Of a stretch of 30,601 nucleotides of DNA, positions 3,870-14,476 are shown piece by piece (the stretch's first letter is position 1; every line of letters starts with the position of its first letter). The notes below the pieces were generated by a model that saw only the letters and a program-made list of their open reading frames with translations, was not told where the DNA came from and did no database searches. The stretch comes from a virus (lineage: Duplodnaviria > Heunggongvirae > Uroviricota > Caudoviricetes), in the IMG/VR virus record IMGVR_UViG_2531839450_000009; one strand, written 5' to 3'. The translations under genes were made by a program, and so were the position numbers.

Positions 3870-4262
3870 TTATTCTACGCTTTCGATAAGAAGACCATGT
3901 TCATAACATTTAAGCTCATCGCCTTCATACAGGAATTGGTATCCAACACCACCACCTTCCAGAACATTAGGGAATAAATCATCACTTACCGAAGAACAAA
4001 TCACACCAATGCAGCGATCAACGCCTTCTCGTTCTTCAGTGCTGAAAAAATCCTCTTCAATAAGCACTTGATTACATTGCTCATCAGCATAAGTTGGAAA
4101 TACATGCTCGATACAATCTGGATGTTTTAAACCAAGCTGATCGGCAAGTTCGAAAGCATGACGGTATTGTTCAGATCCTGGCTTGCCAACAGTGATTTGC
4201 TCAATTTTATAGATTGAAGTCGCTTTGTTGATAGTTTGCTTAACTGTTACTTTATCAGACAT
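3870..4262 (-). CDS. hypothetical protein (130 aa), last gene of the minus-strand operon
   Basis: ORF track. Starts MSDKVTVKQ. Compact spacing with the upstream lipoprotein gene. No recognisable domain. Confidence 0.5.
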   Translation of the reverse strand: MSDKVTVKQTINKATSIYKIEQITVGKPGSEQYRHAFELADQLGLKHPDCIEHVFPTYADEQCNQVLIEEDFFSTEEREGVDRCIGVICSSVSDDLFPNVLEGGGVGYQFLYEGDELKCYEHGLLIESVE

Positions 4263-4606: not shown

Positions 4607-4862
4607 TTTTCACTTCCTGGCTGTGAAAATGTTGATCTGCTTTGTTCATCGTCTCAATGGTCTGGTTAAGATCCATTATTGACTTATCACGTTCCTTAAC
4701 AGCCTGATCAAGACTGCCAATTTTCTCGATGGCTTGCTTTAGCTGATGACGTTCCCATGCAAACCCAGCACCAACAAGTGCGCAAATCAGAACAAGAACA
4801 CCAGTAGCAGCAAGTTTCTCCTTCAAAGACAAAGCTGTTTTTAACGTAGAAAAGAATGACAT
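4440..4862 (-). CDS. N-terminal single-TM, coiled-coil periplasmic protein; i-spanin-like architecture
   Basis: ORF track frame 4440..4889. Preferred start is the Met at 4862 (MSFFSTLKTALSLKEKLAATGVLVLICALVGAGFAW) with a GGAGG Shine-Dalgarno 5 nt upstream. TM helix then a charged helical region. Its 3' end overlaps the lipoprotein gene. Confidence 0.55.
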   Translation of the reverse strand: MSFFSTLKTALSLKEKLAATGVLVLICALVGAGFAWERHQLKQAIEKIGSLDQAVKERDKSIMDLNQTIETMNKADQHFHSQEVKNESEQAKYADRQMERKAEVQKQLVAAGNVRQRIPADTQRLLRESISEFNADADKG

Positions 4863-4901
4863 GTCTTCCTCCTGAAGAAAAATTATCAATGAAGTCCTTT
4901 G

Positions 4902-5690
4902 TTACTGTGCCGCTTTGTTTAATTCATCAAGAACAGAATCAGGAACCAAAGCAGCAACTGCGCTGGCTGTGCTGGCCTTATTTGCTGATGCTTCCGCAAG
5001 CGCAGTACCGATAGCATGGTTATAAGCAGTTATGGCTACATTGGCGCTTTCATTCGCTCGTTCATACTGCTGTTGTAACGCAGTTGTGGGCGCTGTTGTC
5101 TGGTTGAAAACAACCCCAAACTGTTCAGTTGCTACTTTCAGAGATTCAATTTGCTCTTCTGTTAGTGCTGGTGGGGGAGTGGCAGTGCCGCCGCCTGAAC
5201 CAGAGCCTGACGAGCTTCCTGAGCCAGTGTTAAGGGTCTGGTTAATCTCCCCCATAGCAGCGATTAAACTTGATGTATTAAGCGCGTTTACAGCGTCCTC
5301 AAGCGATTTAGTAATAGTCACATCACCAATGGCAATAGAGATCGGCAGTTCTGATACTTCTCGCTCATTAGCACGGCAGTAAACATCCCAACCAATATCG
5401 AGTTGAAGCAGCATTGACAGATCTGCATAACCAGCCAACAGGTCCGCGTGCTTAGTTGCCAGTTCGACAATGTTCGTTAAGCCGGTTGTGGTTGTTCTGA
5501 TCGTTGAAACATAGCTGGTAATAGTGTCGGGATAGACAATTGTATCCAGAATTAATCCGGTCAATTCTTCTGCAAGCAGTTTTGCTGTGTTAGCACTGTT
5601 TCGTGCCGATGTTATGGCACCAGGTGTTTTCATCCCACCGGCGGCGGCCAATTTTTTATATGCGGATAACTGGTAGTCTTTTTCCAGCAT
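4902..5690 (-). CDS. hypothetical two-domain protein with Gly/Ser-rich linker (263 aa)
   Basis: ORF track frame 4902..5747. Preferred start MLEKDYQ at 5690 with AGGAG Shine-Dalgarno, avoiding overlap with the PAAR-like gene. Central linker GSGSSSGSGSGGG. No domain recognised. Confidence 0.5.
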   Translation of the reverse strand: MLEKDYQLSAYKKLAAAGGMKTPGAITSARNSANTAKLLAEELTGLILDTIVYPDTITSYVSTIRTTTTGLTNIVELATKHADLLAGYADLSMLLQLDIGWDVYCRANEREVSELPISIAIGDVTITKSLEDAVNALNTSSLIAAMGEINQTLNTGSGSSSGSGSGGGTATPPPALTEEQIESLKVATEQFGVVFNQTTAPTTALQQQYERANESANVAITAYNHAIGTALAEASANKASTASAVAALVPDSVLDELNKAAQ

Positions 5691-6064: not shown

Positions 6065-6081
6065 ATTGCTCTAATAAATAT
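6065..6081 (+). promoter_or_regulatory. C1 repressor operator-like 17-mer
   Basis: attgctctaataaatat matches 15-16 of 17 positions of the P1 C1 operator consensus ATTGCTCTAATAAATTT as I recall it. A TTGCAA -35-like hexamer lies just upstream. Sits between the divergent minus-strand operon and the RdgC/dmt operon. Confidence 0.55.
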
Positions 6082-7335: not shown

Positions 7336-9596
7336 AAGAGCTGTGCTATGGATCTGTTTGCAGTGGAATTGAAGCCGCGAGTATTGCCTGGGAACCGTTG
7401 GGTATGCGTCCGGCGTGGTTTGCTGAAATCGAGCCTTTTCCATCTGCCGTTCTTGCGCACCGCTGGCCCCATGTCGCCAACCTTGGCGACATGACAAAAC
7501 TTGCCCAAAAAGTCCTGGCTGGGGAAATCGAATCCCCTGATGTGCTCGTCGGGGGAACACCTTGTCAGGCATTCAGTATCGCAGGATTAGGTGGTGGGCT
7601 TGATGATGAGCGTGGCGCGCTAACTTTAAAGTATGTGGAGCTTGCAAATGCAATTGACGACAAACGGGCTGAGTCATTTCTCAAACCAGCCGTTATCGTC
7701 TGGGAAAATGTCCCAGGAGTCTTGTCATCGGCAGATAACGCCTTCGGATGTTTCCTTGCCGGATTGGCTGGAGAAGATGTGCCATTTGAACCAGGTGATC
7801 GACCTGAATCAGGAAAAAGCAACGCGTTCTGGCGGTGGGATGGCAAAACCGGTTGCCATGTTCCAAAGTGGCCGCAGTGTGGTTGTATTTATGGACCGCA
7901 GCGAAAGGTGGCCTGGAGAATCCTTGATGCCCAATACTTCGGAGTGGCACAACGACGCCGACGCGTGTTTGTTGTCGCAAGTGCTCGAACAGACCTCGAT
8001 CCCGCAACGGTACTTTTTGAGTTCGAAGGCGTGCGCCGGAATATTGCGCCGAGCCGAAAAAAGAAGGAAATCGCTTCCGCCATTACTGCAAATGGCGCTG
8101 CAATCAGTGGCGAAAGCCTAAATCCATGCCTACACGCTGGCATGTCCCCCGGTATGAAATCGACGAAAGCCGTAAACGGTTTCAGGATGGCGGCATTTGG
8201 GGAATATATTGACGATGAAACCGCATCGACAGTAAAGGCAAGAGACTTTAAAGATGCCACTGACCTTGCCGTTTTTAGCAGCACTGGAGCAGGTTTTTGG
8301 TCAGAAGGGCATGGTACATTGCGGGCGCGTGAGCAAGAAAGCCATGAGCATCTTGTTACATTGGCTTTTCCTGAGCGTATGAGTGGTACACAACATGCAG
8401 CAACTAAGAATACTTCACCATCTCTAATGGCTCAAAATCCAACTGCTGTTTGCTATGAAGTAAGAAACGAAGAAGTAGCTGTCCGCCGTCTTACCCCTGT
8501 CGAATGTGAGAGACTTCAAGGTTTTCCTGATGGGCATACGTTGATCCCTACGGAAAAGCGTAAAAAAGTTAATTCAGATGAACTGGCATATCTGCACAAT
8601 CACTATCCAGATTTAAGCGAAGAAGAGGCCGCGATGCTTGCAGCTGACGGACCGCGTTACAAAGCGATCGGCAATAGTATGGCAATACCAGTAATGCGCT
8701 GGATTGGCGAGCGGATTACCAGGGCTGCATGTCGGCAGAATGAAGGGCGTGAAACAAAAGAGCGAAAAGTTAAACCAGCGGCAGAATTCGAACGGTCCAT
8801 ATTCAAATGGGCTGGTGGAAAATTTGGTGTTCTGGAACAAATCTTTCGCTATTTGCCAGAAGGGAAGCGCCTGATCGAACCTTTTGTCGGTGGCGGAGCT
8901 GTCTTCACGAATGCCGGATACCAGGAAAATCTGCTAAATGATGTGAATGCTGACCTGATTAACTTTTACAAGACTCTGCAACGCGAGGCGCATTCACTTA
9001 TCACACTGGCGCATCGGTTTTTCCAGGACTACAACACACAGGAAGGATACCTGGCAGTACGGAATGCGTTTAACAAACAAGTCTATGATGATTTACATCG
9101 CGCAGCGGCGTTTTTGTTCCTGAACCGACATTGTTTTAACGGATTGACGCGTTACAACCAGGCCGGTGAGTTCAATGTCGGTTATGGGAAGTATAAAACT
9201 CCGTATTTCCCATTACAGGAGATGGAAGCCTTCCTCGGTGCGGAAGGGTGTTCTGAGTTTGTATGTGGTGATTTTGCAGCGGTGATTGAAGCTGCCGGAG
9301 AAGGAGATGTCATCTTTTGCGATCCGCCGTATGAACCGCTTCCAAATACAGAGGGATTCACGAACTATTCCGGTCATGACTTTAAGTTTGAAGAGCAAAA
9401 ACGCCTGGTGTCTCTGTTGACGGATGCTCATCGTCGAGGTGCAAAGGTTCTCATTACTAACAGTGGCGCGCCAAATATCAGAGAGCTTTATCATGACAGT
9501 GGCTTCAGAGTGGAACCTCTTTTTGCCAGACGTTCTGTGTCTTGTAAGGGGGACACTCGAGGTGTAGCTCATGACGTTTTAGGTATATTGCTCTAA
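7332..9596 (+). CDS. dmt: bifunctional DNA methyltransferase: N-terminal C5-cytosine MTase domain fused to C-terminal Dam-like N6-adenine MTase domain
   Basis: ORF track, 754 aa, GTG start overlapping the hrdC stop. N-terminal half has the catalytic [11 protein letters not shown] and ENV (WENVPGV) motifs of C5 MTases. C-terminal half has the DPPY motif (IFCDPPYEP) and Dam-like FKWAGGK/SAM-binding region. Confidence 0.88.
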
Positions 9597-9603
9597 TAAA
9601 TTT
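9587..9603 (+). promoter_or_regulatory. C1 repressor operator-like 17-mer overlapping the dmt stop codon
   Basis: attgctctaataaattt is a 17/17 match to the recalled C1 operator consensus. Embedded in the 16-bp palindrome ctaataaatttattag, followed by taatat (-10-like). Confidence 0.6.
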
Positions 9604-9619
9604 ATTAGTGTAATATCGC

Positions 9620-9776
9620 CTCAATGAATCGTGATTTATAGAGCGATTTAGCTGTTAGCCGCGACAGGCGCGGCGGTAAGCATGGCTGGGCCTAGTCCTC
9701 CCAGACAAACCACCGAGTTGCCAGGTTGACCATGCGCCTAAGTGGCAACTCCGAAGTGCGTTACGAGCTTCCAGTT
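9620..9776 (+). ncRNA. candidate structured small RNA between the dmt-end operator/promoter and an intrinsic terminator
   Basis: No ORF. Several hairpins (gccgcg..cgcggc; gttgcca..tggcaac enclosing about 19 nt) and ends at a strong terminator. Ends not mapped. Confidence 0.3.
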
Positions 9777-9804
9777 TGCCCATCTTCGGGTGGGCGTTTT
9801 TTTT
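9777..9804 (+). terminator. Rho-independent terminator
   Basis: GC-rich hairpin gcccatc-ttcg-ggtgggc followed by a run of 8 T. Confidence 0.65.
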
Positions 9805-9986
9805 CAGGGTTTTCGTCATGGTTAGCGACTTTGCGGCGGTTTAGAAACTGACCATTAAAGTAAATGCAAACGATGATCTGATGATGGTAGCGGCCTAAGA
9901 AGCCAGACGCCACGGGGTATGAGTCGTCCCCCGTCAAAAAAATCGACCGCAGAGTGTCCCCGTCTGTGTATTAGGGAACGGGGAGG

Positions 9987-10269: not shown

Positions 10270-10311
10270 TGATGGTGTAGCTCAGCGGTTCGAGTCCGTT
10301 AATCGGCACCA
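10270..10311 (+). pseudogene. tRNA remnant: D-loop-like and T-arm plus 3' acceptor-ACCA, anticodon arm absent (tRNA-Thr-like 3' end)
   Basis: gtgtagctcag fused directly to ggttcgagtccgtt-aatcggc-a-cca. T-stem agcgg/ccgtt pairs with loop TTCGAGT. The 3' end atcggcacca resembles E. coli thrW as I recall. No complementary 5' acceptor strand and no anticodon stem-loop. Confidence 0.4.
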
Positions 10312-10312
10312 G

Positions 10313-10399
10313 CACAACAGGTAAGGGTATTTTGCGACGTCGGAGATCGCCGAGCTTGGCAGAGGGTTCGAATCCCTACGAAGTACCCTTACCGTTGTG
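10313..10399 (+). ncRNA. hairpin element E2 (candidate structured RNA with T-arm-like internal hairpin)
   Basis: 16-bp closing stem cacaacaggtaagggta / tacccttaccgttgtg (one bulge) enclosing gggttcgaatccc. Not a cloverleaf. Confidence 0.3.
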
Positions 10400-10815: not shown

Positions 10816-10892
10816 GTAACAGGTAAGAGCATTCTCCTGTAACGGGTTCATATCCCAATCTACAGGTCCACCAGGAATGCTCTTTCCGTTGC
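10816..10892 (+). ncRNA. hairpin element E4
   Basis: Imperfect long stem gtaacaggtaagagcattctcctg / caggaatgctctttccgttgc enclosing taacgggttcatatcccaatctac; tail ttgcggtgaatgc. Confidence 0.3.
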
Positions 10893-11042
10893 GGTGAATG
10901 CGGCTAAGCGCACGCGGAACAGTTAAAACAATCCTCCTTAATGGTTAAACATTCCGGCGTTAATTGTTAACTGGTTAACGTCACCGGGAGGCACTCGGCA
11001 CCGCAATCTAATAAATATGTCACTTTTATTGAGGGATAACCA

Positions 11043-11477
11043 ATGTTCGGTAAATTGTTCGGCAAGAAAGTCGCTTCTGCAAAAGTAGAGCTGAAAAAAG
11101 TTGAGAATCGCGATCTGATGGAGGCCATCATCGGTGGCTGTTTGTTGGTGTCTGCCGCTGATGGTGAAATCGAAAAAGAAGAAACAGCGAAACTTGATCA
11201 GCTTGTCCGCTCTAATCCGCGTCTTAGTCATTTTGGTAACGAAATTACTGCAACAATTACCCGCTTTACCGAGCAACTGGAAGCTGGCTTCCGTGTTGGT
11301 CGCATGAATATCCTTCGCGAAATTGAAGATATCAAAAACGATCCAAAAGAAGCGGAAGAAGTATTCGTTAACATGCTGACAATTGCAGAAGCGGACGGTG
11401 AAATCGAGCCAGCAGAACACAAAGTACTGGAAGAAGTAGGCCGTCGTTTAGGTCTTCGTGTGGAAGATTATCTGTAA
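11043..11477 (+). CDS. tciA: TerB-domain protein (tellurite-resistance TerB family)
   Basis: ORF track, 144 aa. Pattern IIGGCLLVSAADGEIEKEE ... MLTIAEADGEIEPAEHKVLEEVGRRLGL, two D-G-E-I repeats typical of TerB. Position upstream of tRNA-Ile and ban matches my memory of P1 tciA. Confidence 0.7.
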   Translation: MFGKLFGKKVASAKVELKKVENRDLMEAIIGGCLLVSAADGEIEKEETAKLDQLVRSNPRLSHFGNEITATITRFTEQLEAGFRVGRMNILREIEDIKNDPKEAEEVFVNMLTIAEADGEIEPAEHKVLEEVGRRLGLRVEDYL

Positions 11478-11641
11478 TGGCAAGCAAGGCACGTATCGCA
11501 ATCGCCATTGGTTTTCTCTTGCTGTCCGTGCTGGTGGATTTCACCAGCACAATCCTGTCAGTTTTATCGGACGGGGCGTTGGTGGCAGTAGCTGTAACAT
11601 TGGTATGGCCGATATTAAAAACAGCTTCTAAGGATCAGTGA
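11477..11641 (+). CDS. small membrane protein (54 aa), translationally coupled to tciA
   Basis: ATG overlaps the tciA stop (TAATG). Hand translation MASKARIAIAIGFLLLSVLVDFTSTILSVLSDGALVAVAVTLVWPILKTASKDQ. Below the ORF-track size cutoff. Position corresponds to P1 tciB as I recall. Confidence 0.5.
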   Translation: MASKARIAIAIGFLLLSVLVDFTSTILSVLSDGALVAVAVTLVWPILKTASKDQ

Positions 11642-11748
11642 TGGGCTTCTGGGATTTTGCTGACAAGCATCCAATTGTTCTCGTTGTCATTGCTGGCATA
11701 GTTGTAGGCGGTATTGCTGGCGTCATAGAAGCACTCAGGAAACAGTAA
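11641..11748 (+). CDS. small membrane peptide (35 aa), translationally coupled
   Basis: ATG overlaps the previous stop (TGATG). MGFWDFADKHPIVLVVIAGIVVGGIAGVIEALRKQ. Position corresponds to P1 tciC as I recall. Confidence 0.45.
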   Translation: MGFWDFADKHPIVLVVIAGIVVGGIAGVIEALRKQ

Positions 11749-11751
11749 TCC

Positions 11752-11827
11752 GGCCCTTTAGCTCAGTGGTTAGAGCTGGCGACTCATAATCGCACGGTCA
11801 CCGGTTCAAGTCCGGTAGGGGCCACCA
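11752..11827 (+). tRNA. trnI: tRNA-Ile (anticodon CAU, lysidine type, AUA-decoding); tRNA-Met cannot be excluded from sequence alone
   Basis: Clean cloverleaf: acceptor GGCCCTT/AGGGGCC, D-arm GCTC-AGTGGTTA-GAGC, anticodon loop CTCATAA, T-arm ACCGG-TTCAAGT-CCGGT, encoded CCA. Near-identical to E. coli ileX as I recall. Confidence 0.85.
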
Positions 11828-12113
11828 TATTTGGTTGTAACACGGCGTCTGGCACATGCGTCGTTAGCGGTCTGGTGACGTTAAAAGGGGGGAACCTTGC
11901 CCCTAGCTCAGGCAACGAACCAGGTAGCCGGAATGTGCAAGCCACCGTTTGTTGTTTCTCGGGTAAAGGGATTCACCATCCTGGCGATTCGGTGTGACAG
12001 CCGGGAAGAGTCCGGCGCATTAATCCTGATTTTCTGGTGATGACTCATATCGTTAGGAGTGATTTGAGTATGCCGATTATATCTGACATTCAGCACGCCT
12101 GGGTGGAGTGCTA

Positions 12114-13478
12114 ATGTCTGCATCCCCTCTTGAATCCATGCCAAATTCCCTTAGTGCAGAACAAGCTGTACTTGGTGGCTTAATGCTTGATAACTGCCGC
12201 TGGGATGAAGTTGCAGATCGTATAGTTGCTGATGATTTTTATACCAGTGCTCATCGTGAAATTTTCAGTGAGATGGAGAGGTTATTAAGTCATGGCAAAC
12301 CGATTGATTTGATAACACTTGCTGAAGCACTTGAACAGAACGGTAAATTAGAACGCGCCGGTGGTTTTGCGTACCTTGCGGAGATGTCAAAGAACACGCC
12401 CAGCGCGGCAAATATTTGTGCTTATGCGGATATCGTTCGTGAACGCGCGGTTGTTCGTGAAATGATTTCCGTCGCAAATGAAATAGCCGAAGCTGGATAT
12501 GCGCAGGATGGCAGGGGCAGCAATGAATTGCTGGATATGGCCGAGCGCCGCGTTTTTGAAATAGCTGAAAAACGACAAAAGAGCGGTAGTGGTCCAAAAG
12601 ATATCGCCAGCATTCTCGATGCAACGGTATCTCGCATAGAAGAGTTGTTTCAGCGACCACATGATGGTGTAACGGGGCTTGATACGGGATTTACCGATCT
12701 CAATAAGAAGACGGCAGGGCTTCAGCCGTCCGATCTCATCATTGTCGCCGCCCGCCCATCTATGGGGAAGACCACGTTTGCGATGAATCTCGTCGAAAAT
12801 GCCGCAGTCCGTAACTATAAGCCCGTATTGGTTTTTAGCCTTGAGATGCCGAGCCACCAGCTGATGATGCGCTCACTGGCTTCTCTTGCACGCGTTGATC
12901 AGACTCGTATTCGAACAGGGCAACTTAACGACGAGGATTGGGCGCGGGTTTCTGGCGCAATGGGGATTCTGTTGGACAAGCAAAATATTTTTATTGATGA
13001 CTCAAGCGCCCTGACACCTACAGAGCTTCGTTCCCGCGCTCGTCGTGTTTATAAAGAAAATGGTGGTTTGAGCATGATTATGATCGACTACCTGCAACTT
13101 ATGCGCGTCCCCGAGCTGCAAGATAACCGAACGCTGGAAATTGCCGAGATTTCTCGCTCACTGAAGGCTTTGGCGAAGGAATTACAAGTACCGGTGGTGG
13201 CATTGTCACAACTTAATCGTTCACTTGAACAGCGTGCGGACAAACGACCGGTAAATTCAGATTTACGTGAATCAGGAGCAATTGAGCAGGACGCAGACCT
13301 GATCATGTTTCTGTATCGCGACGAAGTTTATCACCCGGATAGCGAAATGAAGGGCATTGCCGAGGTGATTATCGGTAAGCAACGAAATGGCCCAATTGGC
13401 ACGGTGAGATTGGCTTTTAACGGCCAATACTCACGGTTTGATAACTATGCTGGTGCTGACTGGCAAGAGGATTATTGA
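12114..13478 (+). CDS. ban: DnaB-family replicative helicase (Ban)
   Basis: ORF track frame 12108..13478; preferred ATG 12114 with GGAG upstream. Walker A PSMGKTTFAMNL. Long stretches identical to E. coli DnaB as recalled (SIEAEQ-like N-terminus, GLQPSDLIIVAARPSMGKTT, LRESGAIEQDADLIMF). Confidence 0.9.
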   Translation: MSASPLESMPNSLSAEQAVLGGLMLDNCRWDEVADRIVADDFYTSAHREIFSEMERLLSHGKPIDLITLAEALEQNGKLERAGGFAYLAEMSKNTPSAANICAYADIVRERAVVREMISVANEIAEAGYAQDGRGSNELLDMAERRVFEIAEKRQKSGSGPKDIASILDATVSRIEELFQRPHDGVTGLDTGFTDLNKKTAGLQPSDLIIVAARPSMGKTTFAMNLVENAAVRNYKPVLVFSLEMPSHQLMMRSLASLARVDQTRIRTGQLNDEDWARVSGAMGILLDKQNIFIDDSSALTPTELRSRARRVYKENGGLSMIMIDYLQLMRVPELQDNRTLEIAEISRSLKALAKELQVPVVALSQLNRSLEQRADKRPVNSDLRESGAIEQDADLIMFLYRDEVYHPDSEMKGIAEVIIGKQRNGPIGTVRLAFNGQYSRFDNYAGADWQEDY

Positions 13479-14476
13479 TGCAATGGAATGAGGAAAAGCC
13501 GATGAACATCCTGATCATTGGGCGAAAATTTGAAGCTATCAGTGATGTGAAAACATATACGGAAATGTGGGCTTACAACCTGGCCTGCGCCTTTAGTGAG
13601 GCAGGGGTAACATTGCAATACCATCGTCCATATTCCCCCGGCGTCGAAAGCCCGGAGGATTATGTTGAAGCTGTGTTGACCGCTGCGACCTCGTGTTCTG
13701 CGAAAGCCATTTTAGCGCCAGGATTGCGGTATTTTACTACGGTGCCCAGGGAAATAGGCGTGCAACTGCGTCGTCGATTCACTGGATGGGTAGCCCAGGT
13801 ATACGACGGTTCTATGCTGGATTCGGCACCAGTCGATATTACTTTTACTGTCCGCGATGATACCTGGCGGTACCTGGATAATCCAGGCAGGTTAGAGCGT
13901 CATAATCGCTTTAACAAACATGTTGGATGGGCAGCGAATCAGGATCTGTTCCATCTGGAAACCAAAACAGACGATGTTCTGCGTATTTTTGTAGACCACG
14001 CTGCATTTGATGTTAGTGGGTTTGATCACTCCTTAAGTATCCTTATGAACCTTCAGCGTCTGACCGTTCCGTATGAGGCCAGAACGTTGACCGATGACGG
14101 ATTGATTACCATTGATCCGGGGAATATATCGGTAACCCCATACAGACGGACGCCGGTACCAGCAACCGAATTTGCAGCTGAATTGCGTAAGAGTGACGTG
14201 TTTATCGTTACGCATCCCGAAAGCCTTGGATTAACTGTACTTGAGGCGGCAATGTGCGGGGCGTTGGTATTAACGCCTCCCGATTGCCTTCCGCCAGATC
14301 GCCTGGCTTTGGTGAACCATATGGTTATCAAGTCGCGGATTGATTGGGATGAGGTTATTGCTCGCGTTGATCGCGTGAAAAATGCTGAAAAGGTCCAGTG
14401 TCACACCTGGTCGGCAATTGCGGAAAAGATGCTTGAGACGTTTATCACGCAGAAACCGTCGCGCGGTAACGGATAA
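13478..14476 (+). CDS. GT4-like glycosyltransferase (GT-B fold); occupies the position of P1 dbn
   Basis: ORF track frame; start overlaps the ban stop (or Met at 13502 with AGGA Shine-Dalgarno). C-terminal motif THPESLGLTVLEAAMCGALVLTP resembles the E-x7-E signature of GT4 retaining glycosyltransferases. Confidence 0.6.
   Translation: MQWNEEKPMNILIIGRKFEAISDVKTYTEMWAYNLACAFSEAGVTLQYHRPYSPGVESPEDYVEAVLTAATSCSAKAILAPGLRYFTTVPREIGVQLRRRFTGWVAQVYDGSMLDSAPVDITFTVRDDTWRYLDNPGRLERHNRFNKHVGWAANQDLFHLETKTDDVLRIFVDHAAFDVSGFDHSLSILMNLQRLTVPYEARTLTDDGLITIDPGNISVTPYRRTPVPATEFAAELRKSDVFIVTHPESLGLTVLEAAMCGALVLTPPDCLPPDRLALVNHMVIKSRIDWDEVIARVDRVKNAEKVQCHTWSAIAEKMLETFITQKPSRGNG

Follow-up and report, generated by a model that had tools for sequence, protein, structure and literature searches.

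A 286-nt spacer separates the tRNA gene trnI from the replicative helicase gene ban in a P1/P7-type phage-plasmid (IMG/VR virus record IMGVR_UViG_2531839450_000009), of which a 30,601-nt stretch, referred to here as the window, was analyzed. We find that this spacer encodes a member of a real family of ~165-nt RNAs with four covarying helices, one variable hairpin, and an invariant 19-nt core. The family is common and supported by covariation, and it is described neither in Rfam, nor in the records that we examined, nor in the searchable literature. Judged by its position and by analogy, the element is probably a new class of cis-acting antiterminator RNA, a reading to which we assign a probability of about 0.5. 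The tRNA and the operon that surround the element are already known and ordinary, and the choice between tRNA-Ile2 and tRNA-Met is settled for Ile2.

A conserved RNA family in the trnI-ban spacer

A preliminary description of the window, made from its sequence, proposed that a structured leader of 280 nt precedes ban. The spacer (11828-12113) is 286 nt long, and its folding energy is unremarkable (z = +0.06, with 104 of 200 shuffles folding as well), so that structure cannot be read from this one sequence. Comparison with other phages nonetheless reveals conserved structure, at 11842-12018 (+), and that part of the proposal stands. In BLAST searches, ~185 nt of the spacer are 78-81% identical to intergenic, almost never annotated DNA of unrelated temperate phages including Stx2a and Stx2c phages, mEp460, Ayreon, 2H10, phiV10, and TL-2011b, and a shorter core also matches phages of Stenotrophomonas, Enterobacter, and Klebsiella. 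The conserved RNA element, a put-like candidate antiterminator defined by a covariance model, covariation, and its homologues, corresponds to the first 177 nt of the spacer past a 14-nt linker; the typical length in the family is ~165 nt.

Homologues are present in 69 GenBank phages, in at least 120 IMG/VR contigs, and in 1826 of 5426 complete Escherichia coli genomes (34%). Across 30 matching E. coli records sampled over the whole ranking, the Prokaryotic Genome Annotation Pipeline annotates nothing at the element except for one 'hypothetical protein', and the P1 record likewise has no annotation in the trnI-ban spacer. Comparison of the spacer (11828-12113) with Rfam 15 gave no match at the gathering score or at E <= 1, and a full-text search, the scope of which did not extend to subscription journals, found the core sequence in no paper.

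The most conserved part is a 19-nt core, GGUAGCCGGAAUGUGCAAG, at 11923-11941 (+), and the 19-mer GGTAGCCGGAATGTGCAAG is exact in 12 of the 12 loci first reached through BLAST similarity. When used as an anchor it recovers at least 120 IMG/VR contigs and 24 species genomes, 22 of them from Enterobacteriaceae and two being metagenome-assembled genomes labelled Bacillota, one of which is a chance match. A second anchor that excludes the core recovers 149 copies, and 143 of these have the exact 19-mer, five have a single substitution (none within AUGUGCAAG), and one is truncated; conservation of the core is thus real regardless of the search route. There are 129 unique copies, 44 of which are left after clustering at 90% identity.

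Alignment of the copies shows invariant blocks that alternate with hairpins changing by compensatory substitutions. Our alignment A6 contains 43 sequences, chosen as representatives more than 10% different from each other, and the window copy forms its first row. Five helices are present, in which H1 pairs 11843-11850 with 11856-11863, H2 pairs 11872-11875 with 11920-11923 around an interior that varies, H3 is a variable hairpin (~11946-11970) between the core and H4, H4 pairs 11974-11977 with 11991-11994, and H5 pairs 12000-12004 with 12012-12016. For H1, H2, H4, and H5 together, 94.8% of cells are paired, compared with 26-46% when the partner strand is slid by 1-3 columns, and nine pairs have double changes (66 cells), giving a covariation score that none of 500 shuffles reaches. 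The core segment AUGUGC (11933-11938) is complementary to GCACAU in the H1 loop (11852-11857), and this pairing is present in 99.6% of cells and never varies, so that the core and H1 loop form a possible pseudoknot, predicted from complementarity. A second potential pseudoknot, between CUU in the H2 loop and AAG in the core, is only 81% paired, shows no covariation, and lies where the alignment is unreliable.

The covariance model built on the 43-sequence alignment (R1) scores the window copy at 129.9 bits (E = 2e-38) and finds one copy in nearly every locus. There are two tandem copies in a single IMG/VR contig (L059), at 3998-4153 and 4805-4958, which are on the same strand ~650 nt apart and score 117 and 154 bits.

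Three other explanations of the conserved block were considered and rejected. It is not protein-coding, as there are indels of 1, 2, and 5 nt, the substitutions follow the RNA pairing, and the open reading frame (ORF) at this place in mEp460 is on the opposite strand. The enterohaemorrhagic E. coli anti-small RNAs AgvB and AsxR are 51-60 nt long, lie 3' of PR', and are different from the element. The Pas small RNAs are set apart by their reported distribution alone, being found in ~12% of E. coli genomes and only in Escherichia/Shigella.

Genomic position and probable function of the element

The commonest upstream neighbor of the element in other phages, forming the largest upstream protein cluster, is an S24-peptidase cI-type repressor gene on the same strand. 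In one Stx2c phage, for example, the repressor gene is followed by a terminator at 1905-1924, a TTGACA-16-CATAAT promoter at 1933-1960 (an 11/12 match to σ70), and the element at 2014-2183, ~50 nt past the promoter, whereas in other lineages the element starts 6-12 nt past the -10 hexamer, approximately at the start of transcription. In lambdoid and epsilon15-like temperate phages, the element is found in the first ~90 nt of the transcript made from an early promoter beside the repressor gene, and in many cases an intrinsic terminator and the early genes come after it; the early promoters of these loci are flanked by palindromic operator-like sequences. Among 114 unique contexts, promoter-like sites (>= 9/12) are present within 120 nt upstream in 38%, as compared to 3.5% of control windows, and intrinsic terminators within 800 nt downstream in 39% as compared to 20%, although these are modest enrichments obtained with simple custom scans of partly related contexts. 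One locus (L024) has a strong terminator 335 nt downstream of the element. No match to an N-type antiterminator family was found in the four downstream first-gene clusters that were scanned.

tRNA genes are directly adjacent to the element in 30% of contexts. A tRNA-Arg(UCU) gene lies just downstream of the element in 28 of 156 unique contexts and a tRNA(CAU) gene just upstream in 19 of 156, indicating that rare-codon tRNAs and the RNA element tend to travel together.

Two further observations concern the neighborhood of the element. In four epsilon15-like loci (L010, L013, L015, and L028) and their relatives there is an additional conserved module ~60-90 nt upstream (…GUCGUUAAAU…GGUGGAGUGCGCUU…GUGUGA…), situated between an operator-like palindrome, TTACCTTTNAGGTAA, and the element, such that the RNA of this subfamily may be longer. 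Phage LLS (L178; PQ299149), a reported relative of mEp460 in which N is reportedly missing, was expected to contain the element but does not. The layout in LLS (7731-8360) is otherwise alike, with the repressor, pL, a ~370-nt leader, and a strong terminator followed by yfdP/yfdQ, and LLS may therefore hold another leader RNA.

If the element is an antiterminator, the nascent RNA would fold and remain bound to the RNA polymerase that made it, as HK022 put does, and the element-bound polymerase would resist pausing and both intrinsic and Rho-dependent termination. Transcription in P1 starts at Pban (9587-9614), crosses ~2.2 kb of mostly non-coding or short-ORF sequence comprising a dicF-like RNA, tRNA genes, and tciABC, and then proceeds through trnI, the 286-nt spacer, ban, and dbn. 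Captured here, we propose, as one module with trnI, the element would safeguard the transcription of ban once the polymerase has left behind more than 2 kb of mostly untranslated RNA, on which Rho could otherwise act. A broader version of this reading, which we advance more tentatively and at somewhat less than even odds, is that the element constitutes a third structural class of RNA-only processive antiterminators, apart from HK022 put and HK639 putL, carried by prophages in about one-third of E. coli genomes as well as by those of other Enterobacteriaceae. Such a class would explain early-operon read-through in many temperate phages where no N-type gene is seen at the usual position, and in P1-type phages it would have been fused to tRNA-Ile2 to drive expression of Ban.

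Several points weigh against an antiterminator, in addition to the modesty of the enrichments noted above. The element has no detectable homology to any proven antiterminator, as judged by R1, which gives no significant score on HK022 or the HK639 putL region. P1 is also atypical in that Pban is 2.25 kb upstream of the element and there is no promoter directly upstream, and from the element to the end of dbn there is no convincing intrinsic terminator. The only strong terminator of the operon, at 9777-9806, lies upstream, and the element therefore cannot act on it. Finally, the operon is dispensable for plaque formation in the laboratory: CRISPR interference against trnI, tciA, tciB, tciC, or ban in P1 gave in each case an efficiency of plating of ~1, and all five were scored as non-essential in a laboratory host (PMC10695390).

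The element could instead be another type of regulatory RNA, either a ligand- or protein-sensing (riboswitch-like) cis-regulator of the early operon, or a stable trans-acting RNA processed beside the tRNA. An invariant core with a likely pseudoknot and variable peripheral hairpins is typical of a binding pocket, and the tRNA adjacent in 30% of contexts would provide processing sites. We nevertheless regard this as unlikely, as there is no consistent expression platform, H5 is not followed by a U-tract, the next ORF is anywhere from 22 to more than 1000 nt away, and the element does not end in an intrinsic terminator, which a free-standing small RNA would be expected to have. The strict promoter-proximal position better fits an action on the transcribing polymerase.

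It is also conceivable that the P1 copy is a passenger, a [tRNA + leader] fragment derived from a lambdoid early leader and kept through its linkage to trnI or because it was acquired recently, with no effect on ban. Of the subtypes, that of Stx2/mEp460 resembles the P1 copy most and even has the 14-nt pre-element leader ATTTGGTTGTAACA in common with it, and P1 has neither a promoter just upstream nor a clear terminator downstream; the CRISPR interference results (PMC10695390) are likewise consistent with such a role. In P1 the element is separated from trnI by the 14-nt linker, and trnI and the 286-nt spacer are identical between the window and P1. Homology to the lambdoid phages stops at ~12013, and the rest of the ban leader (12019-12113, +), which includes a Shine-Dalgarno GGAG at 12105-12108, is specific to the P1 lineage.

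The pattern of change within the lineage does not favor a passenger, and we think it quite improbable that the P1 copy is one. Among P1, P7, D6, SJ46, RCS47, and their IMG/VR relatives only the apices of H2 and H3 vary, with the hairpins kept, and H1, the core, H4, and H5 are invariant, which argues for selection on the RNA. The tRNA, the same 14-nt linker, and the element are kept together in all P1-like and D6-like loci, and exchange of tciABC or of ban has not removed the element: phages with an SPFH-type protein in place of tciABC have lost neither the tRNA nor the spacer nor ban, and the D6-like phages, which have no ban, diverge immediately 3' of H5. The gene that takes the place of ban after trnI and the element in D6 (L017; 2955-3530) encodes a Tad2-like (Thoeris anti-defence 2) domain (PF11195, E = 1e-9).

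The ban operon and its tRNA

The ~2.9 kb region around 11043-13478 is 97.6-98.5% identical to P1 and P7 (80% of it aligns with P1 NC_005856, at 98.5% identity), and the window is a P1/P7-type phage-plasmid in which 11043-13478 covers the distal portion of the ban operon, which C1 represses. The order given in the P1 record is dmt, Oban (formerly Op72) with P1ban and P2ban, a dicF-like region, trnA, trnT, tciA, tciB, tciC, trnI, ban, and dbn, beyond which come late genes 5, 6, and 24 in convergent orientation, and the annotations of P7 and of a recent P1 isolate (OP279344) are in agreement. Gene content, order, and start/stop overlaps of the operon in the window match those of P1. The window differs from P1 in having P7/OP279344-type sequence upstream of tciA that replaces the plp/upl genes of P1.

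The preliminary description treated the genes from tciA to ban as one tightly coupled operon, and they do belong to a single C1-controlled operon, but it starts upstream at Pban rather than at tciA. The C1 repressor operator pair (Oban/Op72a,b; 9587-9614) overlaps the Pban promoters ~1.45 kb upstream of tciA and consists of an exact 17-mer, ATTGCTCTAATAAATTT, at 9587-9603 (+) and an inverted copy with two mismatches at 9598-9614 (-); the homologous site in P1 and P7 is annotated as the C1 operator controlling ban. Close matches to the operator consensus (1-3 mismatches) are also present at 6065, 19347, 22971, 23020, and 25112, giving seven matches in the window where 0.13 are expected by chance, and these are presumably the known P1 operators of neighboring operons. 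Between tciA and ban, the + strand has no promoter-like site, nor is there a convincing terminator. The dicF-like region, so annotated in P1 and located at ~9700-9806 in the window, has no match to Rfam DicF, even at E <= 1, and ends in a strong intrinsic terminator at 9777-9806 (+) with an 8-bp GC-rich stem followed by T8. As this terminator lies between Pban and the tciA-ban genes, transcripts from Pban must read through it.

The gene content proposed at the outset is confirmed. tciA (11043-11477, +) encodes a 144-aa protein of the TerB family (PF05099, E = 2e-14; 54.3 bits against a cut-off of 24.4, covering profile positions 2-113 of 118; PHROG 632) and is named tciA/terB in P1 and P7. It is followed by two tiny genes with overlapping starts and stops (TAATG for tciA/tciB and TGATG for tciB/tciC) that encode membrane-like products, with best 19-aa Kyte-Doolittle means of 2.18 for TciB and 2.73 for TciC. 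tciB (11477-11641, +) codes for a 54-aa hydrophobic protein of family DUF3927 (Pfam, E = 1.7e-26), and tciC (11641-11748, +), also named in P1, for a 35-aa hydrophobic peptide that matches PHROG 23152 (function not known; E = 3e-27). trnI (11752-11827, +; ARAGORN and Rfam) begins 3 nt past the tciC stop codon. ban (12114-13478, +) encodes a 454-aa DnaB-type replicative helicase, annotated as such in P1, with both the Pfam DnaB domain (PF00772, 120.9 bits) and DnaB_C (PF03796, 359.6 bits, E = 1e-107) above gathering; the annotated start is the ATG at 12114, with GGAG 5 nt upstream, rather than the GTG at 12108. The last gene of the operon, dbn (13478-14476, +), has a start codon that overlaps the ban stop codon and codes for a putative glycosyltransferase according to the P1 annotation, although the Glycos_transf_1 match is weak and below the curated cut-off.

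The tRNA folds into a canonical cloverleaf with anticodon CAT at position 34 (ARAGORN; Rfam tRNA, 64.7 bits) and is by its sequence, as the preliminary description had suggested, a lysidine-type tRNA-Ile2 (anticodon CAU) and not a Met tRNA. It is 100% identical to the P1/P7 trnI and 89.5% identical to K-12 ileX, compared with 71.4% for metT/metU and 58.4% for the initiator metZ. The acceptor pairs C4-G69 and C5-G68 are present in trnI as in ileX, where metT/metU have U4-A69 and A5-U68, and these two pairs are the ones needed by E. coli TilS (PMC1635315). None of the marks of an initiator is present: position 1 forms G1-C72 without a C1·A72 mismatch, C11-G24 and U12-A23 occur rather than A11-U24/G12-C23, and the anticodon stem is GGCGA/UCGC(A) and not GGG/CCC. 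ARAGORN and several GenBank records label the gene as elongator or initiator tRNA-Met by the CAT anticodon alone, an identity that is refuted at the sequence level and that we consider almost certainly wrong, and in RefSeq the label tRNA-Ile is given both to a plasmid-borne gene of this exact sequence and to the chromosomal genes that are 89.5% identical to it. The Ile2 assignment is already known, being stated in the P1 reference annotation ('tRNA-ile2 (CAT) gene; 89 pct identical to ileX').

E. coli ileX/ileY, whose products TilS modifies to lysidine, are the closest known relatives in kind: trnI is identical to them over the D-arm, acceptor pairs 1-5, the anticodon loop, and all but one of the five pairs of the anticodon stem. 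It differs from K-12 ileX at eight positions, with U6·G67 in place of C6-G67, changes at positions 26, 43, and 44, and four differences that make up two compensatory changes of T-stem pairs, indicating that trnI evolved as a working tRNA. Unlike ileX/ileY, it is phage-borne and lies within a repressor-controlled operon.

Host TilS would be predicted to convert C34 of trnI to lysidine, so that it reads AUA. The suggestion that the phage supplies its own AUA decoder is compatible with codon usage, in that AUA occurs at 10.6 per 1000 codons in 32 window genes and at 11.2 per 1000 in the 82 annotated genes of a P1 isolate (18% of Ile codons in both), compared with 2.4 per 1000 (4% of Ile codons) in 42 E. 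coli K-12 genes, a difference of about 4-fold from the E. coli sample. Against this, AGA/AGG is elevated ~6-fold (12.0 per 1000 versus 1.9 in the E. coli sample) with no phage tRNA to match, and GC content at third codon positions is 0.47 in window genes versus 0.57 in the sample, so that the AUA enrichment is non-specific, as in any genome of lower GC content. Nor are the late genes richer, with AUA at 10.0 per 1000 in late, structural, and packaging genes and 13.6 in early and maintenance genes. Codon supplementation, in which trnI would modestly top up a rare host tRNA in a phage with about four times the AUA use of the E. coli sample, is an unproven but reasonable and modest role.

The preliminary description named the lack of a deletion phenotype among the outcomes that would refute it, and knock-down of trnI does leave plating at ~1, in laboratory conditions only (PMC10695390). 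Its suggestion that the tRNA could buffer against host defences that target tRNAs finds no support here. We consider it very improbable that trnI serves chiefly as a substitute for host tRNA-Ile2 lost to anticodon nucleases or to other defences aimed at tRNAs, even though the principle has been established for other phage tRNAs (PMC10264068, PMC11464382, PMC11555353). Nuclease-resistant phage tRNAs are marked by changes in the anticodon loop (PMC10264068), and trnI, whose anticodon loop is the same as in host ileX and whose anticodon stem departs from it in just one of five pairs, has no such signature; its knock-down in the laboratory host was likewise without phenotype. The trnI gene is the only intact tRNA gene in the window, for reasons described below. 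To our knowledge, no defence nuclease is directed against tRNA-Ile2.

A fusion remnant of trnA(Asn) and trnT(Thr) is located at 10271-10311 (+), as seen by alignment with P1, P7, and OP279344. Through a 113-bp deletion, what is left of the 5' end of trnA runs into the 3' portion of trnT; the junction is a TCAGCGGTT common to the two genes, and neither tRNA survives. ARAGORN reports three or four tRNAs in the P1, P7, and OP279344 loci and one in the window. Both genes are intact in P1, P7, and OP279344, and in the best 8 of 557 matching E. coli records, and the fusion is thus either a rare variant or an assembly error. Immediately upstream of tciA, at 10890-11005, is a sub-threshold match to STnc100 (RF02076; 43 bits against a gathering score of 47, E = 2e-7), in the P7-type sequence that takes the place of plp/upl; a 2026 preprint relates STnc100 to the PasD small RNAs of pathogenic E. 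coli. A motif beginning CACAACAGGTAAGGG is repeated at ~9988, 10313-10395, and ~10812, and at 10313-10395 a long stem formed by it encloses GGTTCGAATCC, which resembles a tRNA T-arm. As P7 and D6 have tRNA-Ser(UGA) in this region, these repeats may be relics of further tRNA slots.

Comparison with known antitermination systems

We know of very few examples of processive antitermination by RNA alone (HK022 put, HK639 putL, and Bacillus EAR), of which only one has a solved structure with RNA polymerase. HK022 put RNA acts in cis and suppresses termination through the zinc-binding domain of the RNA polymerase β' subunit. Many of the lambdoid copies of the element, though not the copy in the window, occupy the same niche as HK022 putL/putR, being non-coding RNAs made directly after an early promoter, beside the repressor gene and ahead of terminators, with putL itself positioned just downstream of its early promoter (PMC9378689). 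The two are otherwise unlike, in that put is ~70 nt with two stem-loops and is present in two copies per phage, whereas the element, at ~165 nt, has five helices, may contain a pseudoknot, and is usually present once per phage. The immunity region of HK022 contains neither the 19-mer nor a match to R1.

The record of phage HK639 (NC_016158) annotates a 'putL-like antiterminator RNA' at 34187-34312, in the niche seen in the element loci. This RNA resembles the element in lying just downstream of pL and in being present once per phage, and they have several short motifs in common, including an opening hairpin CGGCG…CAUG-CGUCG, a GGAAGAG loop, and a CGAUUYACCA…GGU hairpin. On the HK639 putL region, R1 gives a best score of -0.4 bits with filters off and an end-to-end alignment was not possible, so that the element is not demonstrably a member of the HK639 putL family. 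Membership in either the HK022 put or the HK639 putL family was thus tested with negative outcome by exact motif and by covariance model, filters off included.

Were the element an antiterminator, it would represent a second independent solution in the put niche, by a larger and apparently pseudoknotted RNA. It would also add a missing regulatory element to the map of P1 and aid the annotation of early-gene control in the many prophages, Stx2-converting phages among them, where no N gene is evident. With hundreds of natural variants, and its presence in a third of sequenced E. coli genomes, the family would provide a ready alignment for structural and mutagenesis work. Even with some other function, a family this common in E. 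coli and yet absent from Rfam and from annotation is worth describing.

A parallel for the association with tRNAs is provided by the Stx phages, in which the rare-codon tRNA genes ileZ-argN-argO lie downstream of PR', inside the antiterminated transcript. In both arrangements a rare-codon tRNA is situated in a long phage transcript beside an antitermination signal, known or candidate; in the Stx phages, however, antitermination is conferred by protein Q acting at a DNA site, whereas here the candidate antiterminator is the RNA itself.

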